Positions 3,648 through 15,646 of a stretch of 20,975 bases of DNA are shown piece by piece. Numbering within the stretch: the stretch's first letter is position 1; the number at the start of each line of letters is the position of its first letter. The notes beneath the pieces were generated by a model that saw nothing but the letters and a program-made list of their open reading frames with translations, did no database searches and was not told the DNA's origin. This DNA comes from a virus (lineage: Duplodnaviria; Heunggongvirae; Uroviricota; Caudoviricetes). Both the position numbers and the translations under genes were made by a program. The DNA lies in the IMG/VR virus record IMGVR_UViG_2728369187_000006, positions 1 to 20,975 of that record; one strand, 5' to 3'.

Positions 3648-3897
3648 AAAACCTCCAATGGTTGAAAGGTGATAGTCCGATAATTAGGCTACTGCGTGCC
3701 ATATTTAACACAACAGCTGAATATTAGGTGCTGATGGTTTACCTGCTCATTTATACAAATAATATATAACTAATCGATAATTTTTTGTATTTCACCTAGA
3801 GTCCTAAGGTTTCACCATTCTGGTCCTTCCATACAATCTAAAAAAATAATAATGTAGACATCGCCGTAATTATGCGGTTTATACCCATAGGTGATTT

Positions 3898-4182
3898 ATG
3901 CCAGAAGTTACAGGTTCTCTCGAAAAAGGATTCGAGATCAAAGAAACTATCTCTGAATTGGTATTTAACCAAGAGGGTTTGGTTATTGACCATTCAGTAC
4001 AGGTTGATGGTGTTACGCATCGTATCGTCAAATATGACAATAATGGTAGCGTCGCCATCCGCTATGATACTGATACAGGTAGCAATTTTTCGCTATCACT
4101 GAACAATGTAAAACTCAAAATGACTGACAACAATGATCCTAAGAATACAGTAACTGCTACGTTCTCAAGGAACGATGGCTAA
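3898..4182 (+). CDS. Hypothetical small protein (moron candidate), opposite strand to the surrounding late genes
   Basis: 94-aa ORF in a visibly AT-rich island, with AGGTGA 3 nt before the ATG and an intrinsic terminator just downstream. No family recognised. Confidence 0.5.
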   Translation: MPEVTGSLEKGFEIKETISELVFNQEGLVIDHSVQVDGVTHRIVKYDNNGSVAIRYDTDTGSNFSLSLNNVKLKMTDNNDPKNTVTATFSRNDG

Positions 4183-4188
4183 TGACAA

Positions 4189-4215
4189 GGGGCGCTTCGG
4201 CGCCCTTTTATCTTA
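4189..4215 (+). terminator. Rho-independent terminator after the moron ORF
   Basis: GC stem GGGCGC-TTCG-GCGCCC followed by TTTTATCTTATT, read directly from the sequence. Confidence 0.7.
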
Positions 4216-4297
4216 TTCAAACCTCAACATAAATTACAATAAATAAGATGCATAGGTTATTATCAAGCGACTTAACCATTCTGGACTTAATTGTTTC

Positions 4298-4558
4298 TCA
4301 TCTTAATTCCATAGAGTGATTTTCTATTTTACGTATATCAGCCTTATCTCGATTGCATTGTCCAAGGGCTGATAACAGACTCACATTTAAATTAAAACTG
4401 GCCCCATATGTCAGCGGTTCTGGAATAACTGGTTGTGGGGTTTCAGCGGTCAGACTCACCGGTAGTGGTATCGCCGGAACTTGTACGTAAACTGTCCGCG
4501 AACTTCCGCAACCGGTCAGCAGCGGCAGCAGGCACAGGACGTGAAGCACAATCATCAT
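4298..4558 (-). CDS. Rz1: Rz1-like o-spanin lipoprotein, overlapping the 3' part of Rz in another frame
   Basis: Internal start (MMIVLHVLCLLPLLTGCGSS...) gives a signal peptide with lipobox LTGC and a proline-rich mature part, in the +1 frame relative to Rz. Start codon choice is uncertain. Confidence 0.55.
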   Translation of the reverse strand: MMIVLHVLCLLPLLTGCGSSRTVYVQVPAIPLPVSLTAETPQPVIPEPLTYGASFNLNVSLLSALGQCNRDKADIRKIENHSMELR

Positions 4559-4835
4559 CCGCAACAGCCACTTTGATATCTTCCTGGGTTCTCTGTGACT
4601 CCAGTGCGATCTGCTGTTTTGCATGCTGGTTAGCCTCCAGAACTGTATTGATGATTTGCATTGATTGCAGGCCGTTATTAGTAATGGCAGTTGCTGATTC
4701 AGCATTTCGTACAGCCTCATCAGCGCGTTTCTTTTCGTGCTGATATTTGCTGTAGTAGTGGTTGGCAGACCAGATAAAAGAACCAATGACAGTAACGAAG
4801 AATGCAGCGATAACCAGCTTATAGCTCAACTTCAT
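4443..4835 (-). CDS. Rz: Rz-like i-spanin
   Basis: 130 aa with an N-terminal TM segment (LVIAAFFVTVIGSFIW) and a charged, coiled-coil-like periplasmic part, immediately downstream of the endolysin. Confidence 0.75.
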   Translation of the reverse strand: MKLSYKLVIAAFFVTVIGSFIWSANHYYSKYQHEKKRADEAVRNAESATAITNNGLQSMQIINTVLEANQHAKQQIALESQRTQEDIKVAVADDDCASRPVPAAAADRLRKFADSLRTSSGDTTTGESDR

Positions 4836-5295
4836 TTACCACCCCACCAGCCTCTTTAAACCGGGCAATCAGGTCACCGATTTTATGTTCATACTGACCG
4901 TAACCAGCACCCGGCAAAGAAGCCCAGATATTACTGCAACGGTCGATTGCCTGCCGGATATCGCCGCGATCAATCATAGGTAAAGCGCCACGCTCTTTAA
5001 TCTGCTGCAATGCCACAGCATCCTGGCTTTTTGGAGAGAAGTCTTTCAAGCCAAGCTGCTTACAATAAGCATCCCACCAGCGTGAAAGAATCTGATAACG
5101 ACCAGCTGCTGTTGATTTAAGTTTCGGGTTTAGTGTGACAAGTTTGCGAGGATGATCGGAGTAATCAGTGAATAGTTCGCCTCCGACAATAACGTCATAA
5201 CCGTAGTTACATGTCGGTTGCCGTCCGTTATCCGTTCCTTCTGACCATGCCACCATATCGAGGAAAGCTTTACGCTGGGAATTTAGTACCTGCAT
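4819..5295 (-). CDS. R: Endolysin, lambda R-type lytic transglycosylase
   Basis: 158 aa, near-identical from memory to lambda R (QRKAFLDM.AWSEGTDNGRQ...GYDVIVGGELFTDYSDHPRKLVTLNPKLKST.AGRYQ.LSRWWDAY...). Confidence 0.93.
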   Translation of the reverse strand: MQVLNSQRKAFLDMVAWSEGTDNGRQPTCNYGYDVIVGGELFTDYSDHPRKLVTLNPKLKSTAAGRYQILSRWWDAYCKQLGLKDFSPKSQDAVALQQIKERGALPMIDRGDIRQAIDRCSNIWASLPGAGYGQYEHKIGDLIARFKEAGGVVNEVEL

Positions 5296-5298
5296 AAA

Positions 5299-5625
5299 TT
5301 ACTCCTTAGAGCCACCAAACTTGTTACCGATTACTCTCATTGCAGCCCCACGAATTGCATCGACCCCGATCAGCCCCACCCCACCACCAATGGCAACAGA
5401 AAGCGATTTAGGCCATCCGACATACTCAAGAGCGGATGCAAAAGTCAGCGTCAGAGCACCACAGAGCAAAATCTCGAGCGTTTTTCGTTTCCAGCCACCA
5501 CCACTGCCAAAATAGGCAATACGTAAACCAGCCATAACGATCGACATAATCACTGCGCCCAGCGGTGTGTCTCCACGCCACCAGCTCTGGACCAACTCCA
5601 GCCAAGTATTTGGGTTATGAGGCAT
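5299..5625 (-). CDS. Putative holin (class I-like, three hydrophobic segments)
   Basis: 108-aa ORF with three predicted TM segments immediately upstream of the endolysin. Not lambda S by sequence; called on position and topology. Confidence 0.62.
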   Translation of the reverse strand: MPHNPNTWLELVQSWWRGDTPLGAVIMSIVMAGLRIAYFGSGGGWKRKTLEILLCGALTLTFASALEYVGWPKSLSVAIGGGVGLIGVDAIRGAAMRVIGNKFGGSKE

Positions 5626-5764
5626 TTGTAGTTATCTCTCACCTCGCTAATACAGCAGGTGCAAATTGAGGGAACATCATGTACCGCAAATCAGAAGCGG
5701 AAACGTCAAAGAAGCCGAACCAATGGATAACTGCGGAATAGGCAAGGACCAACGAATCCCCAGC

Positions 5765-5799
5765 CCCAGAAACGACAAAACCCGCTCGACGGCGGGTTT
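5765..5799 (-). terminator. Intrinsic terminator on the minus strand, candidate tR'-like late terminator
   Basis: Stem AAACCCGC / GCGGGTTT (5778..5785 and 5792..5799) with loop TCGACG; on the minus strand it is followed by TTTTGTCGTTTCT. Sits about 140 nt upstream of the holin start. Confidence 0.5.
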
Positions 5800-5844
5800 A
5801 AGCTGTGTGGCGAAGTAACCACTCTTAACAGATTACAATGTTTT

Positions 5845-5873
5845 TTGCGTACGCGTTAGCATTTTCGTAAAAT
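5845..5873 (+). promoter_or_regulatory. Candidate sigma70 promoter for the cargo operon
   Basis: TTGCGT (5845..5850), 17-nt spacer, TAAAAT (5868..5873), about 30 nt upstream of the 5905 ATG. AT-rich context, so chance matches are likely. Confidence 0.3.
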
Positions 5874-5904
5874 ACATTACCTTGCAACCATTTCAGTATA
5901 AAAA

Positions 5905-7695
5905 ATGAGCACAGAATTAAAACTAAAGAAAATTATGGCATCGTCTAAAATTGAGCCATTTATTAGACATATTCGTTTTCCTTTTTTTAAAAACCTTGCA
6001 GAGGGTAGCAAGATTGATTTTGAGTATCCAATTACAGCATTAGTTGGTCAAAACGGAACCAATAAAAGTTCTGTTTTAAGAGCCCTATTCGGTTCTCCAA
6101 ACAACTATTCTCTGGGTAGCTTATGGTTTTCTACAGATGTAGATGAGATTAAAGATGGTGGTCGTTCTAGATTTATTTATGGATATTATGACAAAGCTAC
6201 TGATTCAATTGTTGAAGTAATTAAAACTCGAATCTCTAAAGAAAATGATCCTGATTACTGGGAACCATCCAGACCATTAAAATCCGACAACATGGCTCCA
6301 ATGCCTAGTACAAAAATCTCAACCAATCAACTAAGGACTAGGTGGAAAGCTATTGACAAAAATGTAATATATTTAGATTTCAGAGCAACTATCAGTGCAT
6401 TTGATAAGTTCTTTTATCACTCTGATTTTCATACATACCCTAAGAAAGATTATCTTAGAAAACGCAGTCAGATGCTAAAAGACATTATAGATAACGATCT
6501 TAAAAAATATCAACCTCATAAAGGAAAAAAAGACAAGCTATTTGTTAACACTTTATTAGAAAAAAGTAAGGTAGAGGCAATCAGCAAGATTTTAGGTCGC
6601 AAATACACAAGCATCCGCCTTATTGAACATAGCTTATTCACTAATGACAAAGCTCCCACAATTATTCTTCAATCAGAAAACTTAAAATATTCTGAAGCTT
6701 TCGCAGGCAGTGGGGAATTTGCTGTATCTATATTAGTGCATAAACTAATGGATAGCCCTGATGCATCTTTAATTCTGCTAGATGAACCTGAAGTATCACT
6801 TCACCCTTCTGCTCAATGTCAATTGATGGAATTTTTATCAGAACAAGCACTTAAAAAGAAACATCAAATTGTCATATCCACACATTCATCAACAATAGTA
6901 AAAGACTTGCCTAAAAATGCCATAAAATTATTCTGTCTGAATGATAAAATAGGAAAGGTTGATGTTCTTCAAAATGTCAGCCCAGAAGAATCTTTCTTTA
7001 TTCTTGGTGAACGCATTGATAAAAGAACCGTTATTGTAGAAGATCGGTTAGCGAAGAGGTTTGTAGAAAAGGCGCTTAAAGCGGGTGGTGAAGCATTATT
7101 AAACTCCTTCGAAGTAAAACATGTTCCTGGAGGAGCGGGAAGTATTCTTCAAACTTTGGCTGTGCCTTTATGTGTTGCCAATGTTAAAAACGTTATTTTC
7201 TTATTAGATGGTGACCAATCGAGAACTGATGATTATCCAACTTCTGATTCCATACCAGAAAATCAAAACACAAACCTTCAAAACATCATAAAAGAAATAA
7301 CCAATCAAGATATAAAATTTAGTTGTGATGGTTCTAATGGCTCATCAAATAACAATCAAAAATACAAAATGCAAAGAAATTTTATCGATTTCATCCACGA
7401 TAAAATTGCTTTTCTTCCTGTTTATACTCCTGAAGCATTTCTTATTGAGAATGTTCATGGTGATTATAAAGAATATAAAGATCAAATCCCCAAAAACATT
7501 CAAGATGCTAAAGAAATCACCAAAGAACTTTGTAAGTTAGACACAGGGTTGGAAAACGTTACCAGTGACGATATCTTTGAAACACAAATCAGAATTCTTA
7601 ATAAAATACCAAATAATCATGAAGTGTTAACAAAAACTCGAGAGTTGCTGCAAATCTTTTTAGATAATGATACTATCAGACCAAGAGTGAGGTAG
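5905..7695 (+). CDS. OLD-family-like ABC ATPase with putative C-terminal TOPRIM nuclease domain (cargo gene 1)
   Basis: 596 aa. Variant Walker A (ALVGQNGTNKSSVLRAL), Walker B with LHP (SLILLDEPEVSLHPSAQ) typical of AAA_21/OLD ATPases, then TOPRIM-like motifs (TVIVEDRLAKRFVE, glycine-rich PGGAGS, DxD-like FLLDGDQ). AT-rich. Family assignment is by eye, not by HMM. Start may instead be ATG 5935. Confidence 0.7.
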   Translation: MSTELKLKKIMASSKIEPFIRHIRFPFFKNLAEGSKIDFEYPITALVGQNGTNKSSVLRALFGSPNNYSLGSLWFSTDVDEIKDGGRSRFIYGYYDKATDSIVEVIKTRISKENDPDYWEPSRPLKSDNMAPMPSTKISTNQLRTRWKAIDKNVIYLDFRATISAFDKFFYHSDFHTYPKKDYLRKRSQMLKDIIDNDLKKYQPHKGKKDKLFVNTLLEKSKVEAISKILGRKYTSIRLIEHSLFTNDKAPTIILQSENLKYSEAFAGSGEFAVSILVHKLMDSPDASLILLDEPEVSLHPSAQCQLMEFLSEQALKKKHQIVISTHSSTIVKDLPKNAIKLFCLNDKIGKVDVLQNVSPEESFFILGERIDKRTVIVEDRLAKRFVEKALKAGGEALLNSFEVKHVPGGAGSILQTLAVPLCVANVKNVIFLLDGDQSRTDDYPTSDSIPENQNTNLQNIIKEITNQDIKFSCDGSNGSSNNNQKYKMQRNFIDFIHDKIAFLPVYTPEAFLIENVHGDYKEYKDQIPKNIQDAKEITKELCKLDTGLENVTSDDIFETQIRILNKIPNNHEVLTKTRELLQIFLDNDTIRPRVR

Positions 7696-7698
7696 ATA

Positions 7699-8739
7699 AT
7701 GGCTAAAAAGATACACGTTTACGATTTCTTTTCCGGCTGCGGCGGAACCAGTGTAGGCCTAAAAGCGGTGGGAATGGAAATTATTTTCGGTTTAGATATT
7801 GATCTAGACTCCGCTAACACCTTTAAAATGAATAATCCATTTGCACATTTTATCAATGGTGATATCAAAGATACACACGTTGAGGAAATTAAGCATCTGG
7901 TTTGTGCGTCAACACAAAGCAAAGCTCTAACCCTATTTTGTGGTTGTGCTCCATGTCAACCATTCTCGAAACAAAATAAAATACGGAACGAGGATGATCC
8001 GAGAAAAGATCTGCTTACTGAGTTTGCACGGTTTGTCTCTTATTATACGCCAGACTTTGTACTGGTAGAGAATGTACCAGGAATCCAAAATGTCGATATT
8101 AACAATGGAAATTTCCAGAAATTTCTTGAGGTTTTAGCACATCATCACTACAACGTTGATTTTGGTGTGATTCCTGCGTTGTGGTTCGGGGTTCCTCAAA
8201 CACGTGAACGTTTTGTTTTACTGGCGTCAAAACACACGAATATTAAGCTTCCATCACAAACTCATGATGGATTAAAAACTCCGTATGCAACTGTCAGAGA
8301 CTGGATCGGCGGATTACCTCCTATTGCTGCCGGTGAAACTCATAAAGATGTTATGGATCATACAGCAGCCAAACTATCTGATCTAAATATTAAACGTATT
8401 AAAGCGACTCCTGAAGGAAAAGGTAGAGAATCTTGGCCTGAAGAACTTATACTAAAATGCCATAAAAAATATAAAGGGCATACTGATGTTTATGGACGGC
8501 TTTCTTGGGACAAACCAGCAAGTGGATTAACAACTAGATGTATAAGCTATTCGAATGGACGTTTCGGACATCCAGAGCAAGATAGGGCTATTTCTGTTAG
8601 AGAGGCTGCGTTATTACAGACTTTCCCATTAGACTATTCCTTCACAGGCTCTTTAGTCTCGAAAGCCAAACAGATAGGGAATGCAGTCCCTCCCAAGATG
8701 GCTGAAGCTCTTGGAAGGGCTATCATCGCATCACTTTAA
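7699..8739 (+). CDS. DNA (cytosine-5)-methyltransferase (cargo gene 2)
   Basis: 346 aa with canonical m5C motifs: I (FSGCGG), IV (PCQPFS), VI (ENVPG), VIII (QTRERF), X (GNAVPP). Starts 4 nt after the upstream stop, with GAGG inside the upstream gene end, so likely translationally coupled. Confidence 0.9.
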   Translation: MAKKIHVYDFFSGCGGTSVGLKAVGMEIIFGLDIDLDSANTFKMNNPFAHFINGDIKDTHVEEIKHLVCASTQSKALTLFCGCAPCQPFSKQNKIRNEDDPRKDLLTEFARFVSYYTPDFVLVENVPGIQNVDINNGNFQKFLEVLAHHHYNVDFGVIPALWFGVPQTRERFVLLASKHTNIKLPSQTHDGLKTPYATVRDWIGGLPPIAAGETHKDVMDHTAAKLSDLNIKRIKATPEGKGRESWPEELILKCHKKYKGHTDVYGRLSWDKPASGLTTRCISYSNGRFGHPEQDRAISVREAALLQTFPLDYSFTGSLVSKAKQIGNAVPPKMAEALGRAIIASL

Positions 8740-8749
8740 AAGCGGAGCC

Positions 8750-9106
8750 CTAGAGGGCTTCGCCTAACAATAATAGAATACCTGATATAAACCCTATAGC
8801 TCCCTGAAGCTCTTTTCTAATTGCTCCATCAGAGCATTTTCTTTTCTTAGCAATGGTGCGTAATGAGATACCAATCACAAAATGAGCAATGATCAGCTCA
8901 TATTCTTCTGGTTTATACTTCCGCAGGCGGGCGACACAGCCATCAATCATGATGCCTTCATCATCATCGCACTGAATCCGGGACTTTCTGCCATGAGGTA
9001 AAAGCCCCTTGAAGCCAGCGGCTACCGGTTGCCAATCCACACCACTGTTCTCTGCCGCAGCCCACGCTCCCCAACGGTCTAATACTTCATACATATCACA
9101 CATCAA
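8750..9106 (-). CDS. Late-gene antiterminator Q-like protein
   Basis: 118 aa with the VLDRWGAWAA...WQPVAAGFKGLL...RIQCDDDEG motif recalled from the prophage antiterminator-Q family. Sits at the expected position after the nin-like region. Confidence 0.7.
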   Translation of the reverse strand: MMCDMYEVLDRWGAWAAAENSGVDWQPVAAGFKGLLPHGRKSRIQCDDDEGIMIDGCVARLRKYKPEEYELIIAHFVIGISLRTIAKKRKCSDGAIRKELQGAIGFISGILLLLGEAL

Positions 9107-9120
9107 CTTTCTCCACCAAA

Positions 9121-10116
9121 TCAGGCTAGCACACCAATTGCCAACGCACGGTCGATAAAACGAAATATCAGCTCCAGCTGGGAGCCATACTTCTCTTCAA
9201 ATGCCACGGTATCCGCATGCAGCTCGTCGTGATGCTTTCTGCACAAAGGCAACACAAAGAGGTCATGCGCTTTTGTACCCATTCCACCCTGACCGTGGCC
9301 TATCAGGTGGTGGGGATCATCAGCAGGTTTTCCACAACATGCGCACGGCTGCGTCTTAACCCAGCGCGTGTACTTTTCATTAACCCAGCGGCGACGTTTT
9401 GGGCGTAACATAAAAGACTCCGGCGACTCCGGATCCACTTTCAGCGCCAGCACCTTTTTCGCCTTATCCTGGATGATGCTGGTGGCAGGAACCGAAGGCA
9501 CCAGGTCACTTTCCCGGGTGACAGATGGCACAACAGGCTTCGGTAATCTCAGTGCCTTACGGGCTGCACTTTCCGGTAAGGCATCCGCCAGATCATTACG
9601 AACCAGCCACCAGCACAGTTCCGGCATTGTCACAACGTGACTATCATCAAAACCGAGATCCCGACGCACAACAGACAACACCCAGCGGGCACAGTTATCC
9701 GTTGCCATTGATTCCAGCCGTTCCGTGAACTGATCGCGCAGCTGGTTATCACAGTGCCAGCACAGACGGATTGCGCCCGGAGCGTGTCGCATTGTGGTAA
9801 TGTTCTCGCTGTGCCAGTCGGAATGAGGCCACTGACAGCCCTTTTCACGAAGTAACCAGCTTTCAAGACATTCCACGCCACCAGCACGACGGATCACTGC
9901 CTCATTGCGGAACACGGCCCGAACGGCAGGATCATCCACCAGCGGTTGTGATGCCGCCGGAACTGCACCACTGGCGAAAGATGAATAACGTTCCGGCTCA
10001 GGCTCCAGCAGGACACGCCCCTGCATAAACAGGGGCATCAACTCTGAACCTGGCCTGAACAATACGATCCCCATACGCGGGGCAACTTCAGGGGTCAGTA
10101 GTGCTCTCACGGTCAC
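9121..10116 (-). CDS. DUF968-family protein (YdfU-like), C-terminal Cys/His-rich putative nuclease-like domain
   Basis: 331 aa with C-terminal CACCGK...HHLIGHGQGG...CRKHHDELH. Resembles DUF968 proteins of E. coli lambdoid prophages from memory. Confidence 0.7.
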   Translation of the reverse strand: MTVRALLTPEVAPRMGIVLFRPGSELMPLFMQGRVLLEPEPERYSSFASGAVPAASQPLVDDPAVRAVFRNEAVIRRAGGVECLESWLLREKGCQWPHSDWHSENITTMRHAPGAIRLCWHCDNQLRDQFTERLESMATDNCARWVLSVVRRDLGFDDSHVVTMPELCWWLVRNDLADALPESAARKALRLPKPVVPSVTRESDLVPSVPATSIIQDKAKKVLALKVDPESPESFMLRPKRRRWVNEKYTRWVKTQPCACCGKPADDPHHLIGHGQGGMGTKAHDLFVLPLCRKHHDELHADTVAFEEKYGSQLELIFRFIDRALAIGVLA

Positions 10117-14680: not shown

Positions 14681-14881
14681 CTAATCTTTCGGATAGATAT
14701 CCGGTCTTAAGTCAGATTTCGTAATTGCACCTGACGTGCATTGCTCAAGTTTTTTAGCCAGCACAAAACTGGCTTTTTTATAGCCATTGAAAACCAGCCG
14801 TAAGTAGCCAGGTGTTGAGCCAACTTTTCCGGCCAACTCGCCCTGCTGTTCTTTGGTTAAAGAGTCCCAATACGCTTTCAT
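14681..14881 (-). CDS. cro: Cro-like HTH repressor
   Basis: Small HTH protein (QGELAGKVGSTPGYLRLVFNGYKKAS) divergent from cI. Start at ATG 14881 is preferred because GGAGG lies 8 nt upstream; the ORF-track start at 14905 lacks an RBS. Confidence 0.75.
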   Translation of the reverse strand: MKAYWDSLTKEQQGELAGKVGSTPGYLRLVFNGYKKASFVLAKKLEQCTSGAITKSDLRPDIYPKD

Positions 14882-14971
14882 ACAATATGTACCTCCGGTG
14901 TACATATTACATGATTAAAATGAACCTTCAAGATACTTGTACCTTAACGGTACAAGGGTTTTAATTTCGTT
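14882..14971. promoter_or_regulatory. Immunity control region (OR-like): two palindromic operators plus divergent pR-like and pRM-like promoters
   Basis: Palindromes ATGTACCTCCGGTGTACAT (14887..14905) and CTTGTACCTTAACGGTACAAG (14936..14956). Minus-strand TTGAAG-N16-TAATAT upstream of cro; plus-strand TTGTAC-N17-TTAATT ending 5 nt before the cI ATG (near-leaderless). Confidence 0.65.
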
Positions 14972-15646
14972 ATGAAAACAATCCATGACATCCGGCGGTC
15001 TAACGCCAGAAAACTGAGAGATGGTGTTGGCGGGAATTCTTCCTTTGCCACTATGATTGATCGCGAGCCAACCCAGACCAGCAGGTTTATGGGAGATGGT
15101 GCTACTAAAAATATCGGTGACAGCATGGCACGACACATCGAAAAATGTTTCGACCTGCCTGTCGGATGGCTCGATCAAGAACACCAGACAACCAACATCA
15201 CAAAAAAACCTGATGTTTCAATCACTAATAAACAAATCACATTAGTCCCTGTCATATCATGGGTACAGGCCGGAGCATGGAAAGAAGTTGGATATTCTGA
15301 GGTTGATTTGAGCACAGCAGAAACGTATCCCTGCCCTGTACCCTGTGGGGAAATGACTTATATCTTGCGGGTGATAGGTGATTCAATGATTGATGAGTAC
15401 CGCCCGGGAGACATGATTTTTGTCGATCCTGAAGTACCTGCCTGCCACGGTGACGACGTTATTGCATTGATGCACGATACAGGTGAAACCACCTTCAAAA
15501 GGTTGATAGAAGATGGGACACAGCGTTATCTCAAAGCGTTAAACCCAAACTGGCCTGAGCCTTACATTAAGATCAACGGTAATTGCTCTATAATTGGAAC
15601 TGTGATTTTCTCAGGAAAACCAAGAAGATACAAAATCAAAGCCTAA
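14972..15646 (+). CDS. cI: cI-like repressor (N-terminal DNA-binding domain plus C-terminal S24 LexA-like autopeptidase)
   Basis: 224 aa. C-terminal S24 features: Ala-Gly cleavage-site candidate (WVQAGAWK), Ser nucleophile context (VIGDSM), downstream Lys. Divergent from the cro-like gene across the operator region. Confidence 0.85.
   Translation: MKTIHDIRRSNARKLRDGVGGNSSFATMIDREPTQTSRFMGDGATKNIGDSMARHIEKCFDLPVGWLDQEHQTTNITKKPDVSITNKQITLVPVISWVQAGAWKEVGYSEVDLSTAETYPCPVPCGEMTYILRVIGDSMIDEYRPGDMIFVDPEVPACHGDDVIALMHDTGETTFKRLIEDGTQRYLKALNPNWPEPYIKINGNCSIIGTVIFSGKPRRYKIKA

Follow-up and report, generated by a model that had tools for sequence, protein, structure and literature searches.

The stretch of DNA analysed here, referred to as the window, comprises 20,975 nucleotides (positions 1 to 20,975 of IMG/VR virus record IMGVR_UViG_2728369187_000006) and is a lambdoid prophage of Escherichia coli. 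On its minus strand, the gene for a Q antiterminator is separated from the lysis genes by a 2.9-kb operon of low G + C content that lies on the opposite strand and encodes a putative nuclease and a DNA methylase. This operon is termed the cargo. It is likely that the late-control cassette, consisting of the late promoter pR', a Q-binding site, a pause element, a leader and the terminator tR', is situated at ∼5869..5770 (minus strand), past the cargo. As the cassette would lie past the cargo, Q-modified late transcription should never cross the cargo. The cargo would occupy a dedicated slot and probably has its own promoter, supplied by the phage backbone. This reading is founded on sequence comparison and on analogy with phage 21.

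The original prediction for this DNA had set out two layouts. In the first, the late promoter is near the Q gene and late transcription runs antisense through the whole cargo. In the second, the promoter lies between the cargo and the holin gene, so that the cargo has split Q from its promoter. Either layout was thought to imply interference between lytic induction and cargo expression. All coordinates given for Q, cargo, holin and terminator were confirmed by open reading frame and profile analysis of the window. These include the convergence of the Q gene (ending at 8750) and the methyltransferase gene (ending at 8739) within 10 bp, and the resumption of lysis genes at 5625 on the minus strand, where a holin gene (PF05106) is followed by genes for endolysin and Rz.

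Q proteins are diffusible factors. Q, made from the early operon, would diffuse to the element at 5869..5770, load onto RNA polymerase paused just after the start of transcription and carry the polymerase through the terminator at 5799..5778 into the lysis and packaging genes; the loading and read-through steps are those that we infer from the mechanism of the Q21 family. The nuclease/methylase pair would fill the slot between the Q stop codon and the cassette and point away from the late genes. Its transcription would probably start from TTGCGT-17-TAAAAT (plus strand, 5845..5873), a promoter divergent from and interleaved with pR', and would end at a hairpin over the Q stop codon. The cargo could be expressed in this way in a lysogen while standing outside any phage operon.

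Association of the element with the Q gene

Approximately 280 related loci were compared. The Q protein served to fetch 160 of these, from phage contigs and a set of genomes with one per species, and the element motif alone served to fetch 118, in a scan of phage contigs. With Q proteins at least 67% identical to that of the window, there are 111 loci in which the element is found downstream, always 629–3779 bp from the Q stop codon, and the intervening DNA has a G + C fraction of 0.30–0.43. The loci are spread over many genera of the Enterobacterales, among them Escherichia, Shigella, Enterobacter, Kosakonia, Citrobacter, Raoultella, Pantoea, Yersinia and Providencia. Within this Q subfamily, cargo separates Q from the element in every locus with a detected element (111/111), the genomes of SfII, SfIV and Shiga toxin (Stx) phages included. 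The cargo itself falls into 32 arrangements and 50 protein clusters, figures that include a few cargo-bearing loci of the QuuD type, and 227 of 233 cargo open reading frames are on the strand opposite Q. The element was missed by blastn-short in ten loci; six of these were recovered with a looser motif and two are too short.

When the element motif was the only query, a Q gene of the window's type was found upstream on the same strand, 0.66–3.0 kb away, in 91 of the 118 loci. The other 27 have too little upstream DNA, and no locus with enough upstream DNA lacks Q. What follows the element is far more diverse: the first open reading frame belongs to 40 clusters, among them lambda-S-type, 21-type and other holins, a small Stx-phage open reading frame and stx1A. 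In four E. coli genomes that carry the exact cargo of the window, homology does not go beyond 5777, where the terminator ends, and a different late region follows. Judged by these loci, the element belongs to Q and not to the lysis genes.

The original prediction had proposed a comparison with insert-free relatives. Five QuuD-type loci are cargo-free (E. coli ECMA0423, a Shigella, two Trabulsiella and Citrobacter pasteurii), and in these the element comes directly after Q. The anchor is 32–55 bp after the Q stop codon, and the conserved block therefore starts ∼10–30 bp after it. This arrangement is the canonical position, as in phage 21, where the −35 hexamer starts 7 bp after the stop codon.

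The same order is seen in individual phages. DNA upstream of the holin gene matches Shigella phage SfII up to ∼5873, and ∼90 bp around the terminator also have a match in Stx2a phages and in a lambda-like phage. The order in SfII is Q, 3 bp, two antisense genes of unknown function, the element and the late genes; in Stx2a_WGPS2 it is Q, 21 bp, two other antisense genes, the element and the late genes. The lambda-like phage and DLP12 of E. coli K-12 have an antisense porin gene between Q and the element, and late genes thereafter. Of 5,426 complete E. coli genomes, 2,464 have the leader-terminator part of the element, the Q subfamily of the window and the QuuD/DLP12 type taken together. Seven Stx1a-phage and three Stx2a-phage records carry the Q type of the window, and in one locus (L009) the first open reading frame, ∼480 nt downstream of the element, encodes Shiga toxin 1 subunit A.

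The comparison favours the second layout of the original prediction, in that the late promoter is placed between cargo and holin. To speak of Q being split from its promoter by the cargo is geometrically correct but overstated, as separation is no disruption here but the norm of the window's Q subfamily.

Anatomy of the proposed late-control element

Conservation was scored per position in 87 distinct sequences of the window's Q subfamily and in 6 of the QuuD type. Coordinates of the features are collected in Table 1, together with the corresponding features of phage 21, for which the annotated genome OL657228.1 served as template. The element is ∼100 bp in length and lies ∼150 nt upstream of the holin ATG. 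Conservation sets in abruptly at ∼5869–5858, beside unrelated cargo, and there is none left of ∼5870. An A-tract at 5869..5862 (minus strand) could act as an UP element.

The candidate Q-binding element (QBE) is an invariant block of 17 bp that occupies the position of the QBE of phage 21, i.e., the spacer between −35 and −10. The block is unique in the window and holds the palindrome GCGTACGC (5854..5847). In all 6 distinct QuuD-type sequences this palindrome is replaced by ACGTACGT; both outer bases change symmetrically, and the change tracks the Q subfamily. A second candidate for the QBE, GTTA-N6-GTTA (5829..5816), was rejected as weaker, and it is the same in both Q subfamilies.

Two registers are possible for the −10 hexamer of the predicted pR'. 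The first, TAATCT (5835..5830), has T5835, A5834 and T5830 100% invariant and a predicted start at ∼5823; the same register gives a better promoter in QuuD-type sequences (TTTACG-16-TATGCT). The second, CATTGT (5840..5835; TATTGT in most relatives), has a predicted start at ∼5828 and places TAAGAGT at +2..+8, as in phage 21. The position of this pause-like sequence relative to the start thus depends on the register. The surrounding TGTTAAGAGTGG is 90–100% invariant in the window's Q subfamily, except for position 5828 (82%), and is fully invariant in the QuuD type.

The original prediction of a minus-strand, tR'-like terminator upstream of the holin holds, and the terminator is conserved as a feature in relatives. 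Its stem (5799..5778) is ∼150 nt before the holin ATG and is the best of 9 terminator-like sites in the region, where shuffled sequences lead one to expect 3.2 ± 1.7. It would end a leader RNA of ∼47–52 nt. A 54-nt leader folds with −19.6 kcal/mol (z = −3.1), and none of 200 shuffles folds as well. Of 91 distinct related sequences, 82 have a terminator-like hairpin, in 54 sequence versions; in 73 of these 82 it ends 51–69 nt after the anchor. As 54 different hairpin sequences fill the same place, the comparison indicates that the terminator is kept by selection as a feature and is not merely inherited sequence. Rfam searches of the whole window at gathering thresholds, and of 5600–5960 at E values up to 1, gave chance matches only, and the leader corresponds to no described RNA family. 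The reported RpoE control of DLP12 prompted a look at a sigma-E-type promoter in the leader, which was rejected as its spacing does not fit.

Table 1. Positions of the features discussed, in the window and in phage 21
Feature	Position	Strand	Description or basis
Candidate Q-binding element, TAACGCGTACGCAAAAA(A)	5841..5858	−	Invariant block; 97–100% invariant in 87 distinct sequences
Predicted late promoter (pR'), −10 region	5830..5840	−	Conservation and phage 21 analogy
Invariant TGTTAAGAGTGG with TAAGAGT (5827..5821)	5819..5830	−	Resembles phage 21 sigma-dependent pause element TAAGCTG
tR'-like intrinsic terminator	5770..5799	−	8-pair stem-loop 5799..5778, then TGTCGTTTCT (T-run)
Predicted cargo promoter	5845..5873	+	−35 TTGCGT (5845–5850), 17-nt spacer, −10 TAAAAT (5868–5873)
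Cargo gene 1, OLD/ABC-type ATPase, 596 aa	5905..7695	+	AAA_15/AAA_21; PGAP name 'ATP-dependent nuclease'
Cargo gene 2, C5 cytosine DNA methyltransferase, 346 aa	7699..8739	+	PF00145, E 3.3e-59
GC-rich hairpin over Q stop codon	8742..8763	both	Fold energy; candidate insulator or weak terminator
Q antiterminator, 118 aa	8750..9106	−	PF06530 Phage_antitermQ, E 8.8e-44; PHROG 79
First late genes	4443..5625	−	Holin, endolysin, Rz/Rz1
Holin	5625..5299	−	PF05106
Endolysin	5295..4819	−	Follows holin
Rz	4835..4443	−	Rz1 embedded
cro	14905..14681	−	First gene of early operon
cI repressor	14972..15646	+	Operon context
Phage 21 −35 (TTGACA)	Starts 7 bp after Q21 stop		Annotation
Phage 21 QBE, 16 bp, ATTGAGCA AATGAGCA	Fills −35/−10 spacer		Annotation
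Phage 21 −10	Directly after QBE		Annotation; start site also annotated
Phage 21 sigma-dependent pause element, TAAGCTG	+2..+8		Annotation
Phage 21 terminator	Ends 50 nt after start		Annotation

A predicted cargo promoter in the same block

The hexamer TTGCGT is present on the cargo strand in all 87 distinct sequences of the window's Q subfamily. A TAnnnT hexamer follows exactly 17 nt downstream in 65 of the 87, and at any other offset from 10 to 44 in at most 8; the hexamers themselves vary with the cargo. Transcription of the cargo in the window is predicted to start at ∼5880, which is 25 nt 5' of the cargo ATG. Of the 29 arrangements of this Q subfamily, 23 have the first cargo ATG 55–95 nt from the anchor, which leaves no room for another cargo promoter. 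The TAnnnT signal was found on the cargo strand in 0 of 6 QuuD-type sequences. It is therefore in the window's Q subfamily that the backbone, to judge from these alignments, probably supplies the −35 hexamer of a divergent cargo promoter.

For the cargo promoter and pR', the starts are predicted to lie ∼50–57 bp apart, so that the −35 regions of the two interleave. This raises the thought that both promoters form one bidirectional unit whose shared core is the Q-binding site. Q bound at pR' would then occlude the cargo −35, TTGCGT, turning lysis on and cargo off, and any promoterless cassette placed in the slot would be on in a lysogen and off in lytic growth. We think such a switch unlikely.

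The convergent Q/cargo junction

The Q protein aligns over residues 2–115 to positions 1–114 of the 118 positions of the PF06530 model, which is the Q21 family in the published classification (PMC9388147). The match to the Q21 structure 6p18 is weak (E 0.003). Identity is 84–86% to the Q proteins of SfII and Stx2a_WGPS2 and 45–47% to QuuD of DLP12.

The stop codons of Q (8750–8752) and the methyltransferase (8737–8739) converge, with a gap of 10 bp. A hairpin at 8763..8742 is predicted to fold with −19.7 kcal/mol in the Q sense (z −2.2) and −17.1 kcal/mol in the cargo sense (z −2.6), and is followed by a UUUU run on the Q-sense strand only; the cargo-sense strand has no U-run. Among loci with ∼90%-identical Q proteins, the DNA 3' of the Q stop codon is wholly different, and therefore there is no common Q-binding site in it. 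The sigma-70 consensus scan found no minus-strand promoter-like site between 8750 and 7631.

These data bear on the first layout of the original prediction, which places the late promoter at or within the 3' end of the Q gene. From there, polymerase modified by Q would proceed antisense through the cargo to the holin gene and silence the cargo in lytic growth, giving a noncontiguous operon. There is a precedent in phi80 taiEcA (PMC11364771), and pR' adjoins Q in the canonical cassette. The layout fits the window poorly. A gap of 10 bp leaves no room for a Q-binding site, a pause element and a terminator; conserved DNA that could hold them is lacking, as is a minus-strand promoter-like site between 8750 and 7631; the junction hairpin with its U-run faces Q-sense transcription; and a complete phage-21-like cassette is found downstream of the cargo. 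A near-consensus minus-strand site is located within the ATPase gene (6513..6484, TTGATA-18-TATAAT, 11/12 to the sigma-70 consensus), which could be cited in favour of antisense transcription, though it is far from Q. AT-rich foreign DNA often holds promoter-like sites. Taken together, the first layout is extremely unlikely.

With pR' placed past the cargo, the claim that either layout implies interference loses much of its force, since late transcription would diverge from the cargo. Early read-through, cargo transcripts entering Q and competition between the interleaved promoters are possible routes by which part of the claim could still apply. The first two belong to a reading in which pR' is where we propose but the cargo is coupled to the lytic switch. 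Early transcripts reading past Q would lead to collision or antisense effects, or the cargo transcript would serve as an anti-Q RNA like that from lambda paQ, and the convergence would itself be regulatory. The early operon ends with Q, which is convergent with the cargo, and the lack of a cargo-sense U-run at the junction hairpin means that cargo transcripts could enter Q antisense. The antisense orientation of 227 of 233 cargo open reading frames suggests selection, but use of the divergent backbone promoter would explain it equally well. Most other arrangements, too, have a GC-rich hairpin between the 3' end of the cargo and the Q stop codon, several of them with cargo-side U-runs. In uninduced K-12, moreover, a strong terminator between quuD and nmpC was without effect while the cargo-side promoter was active, and the authors concluded that Q-side transcription does not cross the cargo (PMC11677980). 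Coupling to the lytic switch can be entertained tentatively, as a possibility that we doubt.

A CII-dependent antisense promoter, paQ, is annotated inside the Q gene of phage 21 (L284, 2737–2769). It is cited in support of coupling, and with cargo transcription converging on Q and no cargo-side U-run at the junction hairpin, a comparable anti-Q role could exist in the window.

Weight of the evidence

Several points weigh against a late-control cassette at 5869..5770. The K-12 data stem from uninduced cells, a defective prophage and a sister Q subfamily, and are a hint only; the whole case is built on comparison and analogy. A further point is that the invariant block is palindromic, unlike the pair of 8-bp direct repeats of the Q21 QBE, and inspection of the block by eye revealed no 8-bp tandem direct repeats of that kind; the block could be the site of some other protein, or no more than a place where −35 hexamers overlap. 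Measured against the consensus, the predicted pR' is weak, with a poor −35 and a −10 that matches at 3/6 positions. Neither it nor the cargo promoter was called by the sigma-70 consensus scan, in which promoter-like sites are not enriched (9 found, 10.8 expected). As this simple scan missed both promoters, their positions rest on conservation. In the pause-like TAAGAG, the final T expected of a −10 hexamer is missing. Both −10 registers are possible; they are 5 nt apart, and the main conclusion is unaffected by the choice. Lastly, one locus (L081, with 7 kb of DNA downstream of Q) and perhaps another (L131) are without the element even under the loose motif. The two may be exceptions, rearrangements or very large insertions.

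Some of these points could also mean that the element is not the target of Q. It would then represent a leader of the lysis cassette, a mosaic joint, or a cargo promoter with the site of another regulator, and the true late promoter would be elsewhere or, in a defective prophage, absent. The cargo-strand promoter in the block is indeed better than pR' when compared with the sigma-70 consensus (8/12). In some genomes homology stops where the terminator ends, which is what a mosaic joint would produce, and the lysis cassette of DLP12 is reported to respond to RpoE and Hha (PMC7918800). On the other side, the association with Q holds in both directions, whatever the type of holin, and the element is directly after Q in cargo-free relatives. 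A terminator ∼50 nt on is needless for a mere cargo promoter or recombination joint, and the same architecture is present in the deposited SfII, SfIV and Stx phage genomes. That the element is something other than the target of Q is thus very unlikely, and a Q-responsive cassette past the cargo is the reading we retain.

Comparison with known systems

As in phage 21, the window has a PF06530 Q, and its predicted parts come in the same order: first the block in the spacer, then a −10 and a pause-like TAAG... sequence, and ∼50 nt from the start a terminator, with lysis genes behind it, the holin following at ∼150 nt. The intrinsic terminator shortly after the predicted promoter, with late genes behind it, is typical of the Q21 family. 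The promoter does not adjoin Q in the window: 2.9 kb of antisense cargo lie between the Q stop (8750) and the element (5869), in place of 7 bp. The Q proteins are distantly related (E 0.003). In addition, the block of the window is palindromic, has a poor −35 and is shared with a divergent promoter, whereas the Q21 QBE consists of two 8-bp direct repeats.

A close parallel is the DLP12 (qsr') prophage of K-12, with quuD, an antisense porin cargo (nmpC/ompD), the element and a holin gene (essD). Its leader-terminator element is identical to that of the window in 55 of 56 bases. QuuD-type porin genes differ in being 336–396 nt from the element, with ∼190–400 bp between Q and cargo, and the QuuD subfamily, a sister of the window's, has cargo-free members. 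The DLP12-type porin gene is served by a promoter of its own, within 199 bp of the gene start (PMC11677980).

In SfIV, orfs 47–49, located between Q and the lytic cassette, were described as a low-GC moron with its own transcription signals (PMC3851460). The SfIV moron and the equivalent genes of SfII share with the window cargo the phage group, the position, the low G + C content and the opposite strand; the genes of the SfIV moron are different. The SfIV moron was regarded as a one-off insertion via a transposon, and the late promoter was not placed (PMC3851460). The window cargo has the composition of a moron (G + C 0.32–0.39 versus ∼0.5), with 32 alternative arrangements at the same place. 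Of the expected own signals, a 3' hairpin is present; the −35 of the likely promoter is in the conserved backbone and only the −10 varies with cargo. The cargo promoter appears to be owned by the backbone, unlike that of SfIV as described.

The 'noncontiguous operon' taiEcA/atiEcA of phi80 has taiEcA, a defence gene, opposite in orientation inside a Q-controlled late operon (PMC11364771). The window likewise has genes opposite to Q-controlled late genes in a lambdoid prophage. However, phi80 taiEcA is inside the Q-controlled transcript, upstream of the packaging genes, and is crossed by late transcription. By comparison across loci, the cargo of the window is upstream of the predicted pR', which is not the arrangement of a noncontiguous operon, where cargo is downstream of pR'.

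Fixed sites that gather variable accessory or defence genes are known from other temperate phages, e.g., the stx position and the P2/P4 hotspots. These differ in that stx is downstream of pR', in sense orientation and Q-dependent, and in that the P2/P4 hotspots belong to unrelated phages and have no link with an antiterminator or with its promoter. The promoter of the window's Q type was not mapped in the work on Stx prophage pR' (PMC6266700). Accessory genes between Q and lysis genes (the SfIV moron, nmpC in DLP12) and stx downstream of pR' are already known. In the searchable literature, mostly without subscription journals, no description was found of a Q21 branch whose pR' cassette is displaced by an obligatory antisense slot, of sharp conserved slot boundaries, or of a backbone cargo promoter sharing a putative Q-binding block.

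Cargo genes

The methyltransferase also matches TIGR00675 dcm and PADLOC MTase_II (E 6.8e-91). The best PADLOC matches of the ATPase, HEC-04 and ATPase-Toprim_I-B, are both partial, the latter over residues 42–484 (E 1.1e-24), and the match to the OLD structure 6p74 is weak. A Pfam search of the ATPase revealed no Toprim and no recognised nuclease domain. OLD-family nucleases combine an ABC ATPase with a C-terminal Toprim domain, and it is the ATPase part that matches. In terms of a type II restriction-modification system, the methyltransferase is clear and the partner is an ATPase without a Pfam nuclease domain. The pair of an ATPase and a Dcm-type methyltransferase fits no named defence system in PADLOC.

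The exact cargo is present in 8 of 5,426 complete E. coli genomes. The same pairing is found in the same slot in E. coli 873.10 (L285, 3805–6644), with 72% nucleotide identity over the nuclease gene. Conservation of the pair in so divergent a copy suggests that the two genes form a functional, restriction-modification-like unit.

Most of the 50 cargo protein clusters are without annotation. PADLOC and Pfam searches of ten cargo representatives gave few names (PDC-M53A, PDC-S33/RelA_SpoT, NA37), and the slot is for this reason not claimed to be a proven defence hotspot. One arrangement has a RelA/SpoT-like protein (PDC-S33) and another a PDC-M53A protein. In several unrelated cassettes (among L006–L165, e.g., L019, L034, L089 and L056), a nucleoid-associated protein of the NA37 family has a membrane or coiled-coil protein as its partner.

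Prophage backbone

The 3.5 kb at 5600–9130 are 100% identical in strains C4 and LR-03, and A21 differs at one or two positions. The early operon on the minus strand consists of cro, cII, an O-like replication gene, RusA, genes for a KilA-N and a DUF968 protein, and Q as the last gene. An HNH gene and the terminase genes are downstream of Rz/Rz1 on the same strand. The G + C fraction is 0.32–0.39 over 5750–8250 versus 0.47–0.57 in the flanks.

A second patch of low G + C (0.36–0.42) is at 3650–4300, between Rz/Rz1 and the HNH gene. It is missing in the related prophage L285, where Rz1 adjoins HNH. Two plus-strand open reading frames in the patch (3872–4102 and 3898–4182) have no Pfam match. Lambda and phage 21 carry bor at the equivalent position, and the patch may be another small accessory insertion.

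Biological significance

At this locus, a concern is removed: the lysis genes would be reachable without antisense transcription through the nuclease/methylase operon. It is a textbook rule that pR' directly follows Q. The rule appears to fail for a large branch of the Q21 family, in which a cargo slot is always found between the two. The slot is a compact place to search for new prophage-borne functions, bounded by two recognisable anchors. As the element precedes stx genes in some Stx phages, the location of the late promoter matters for any reading of toxin expression from sequence, and the promoter model would apply to toxin expression in those Stx phages that carry the window's Q type.

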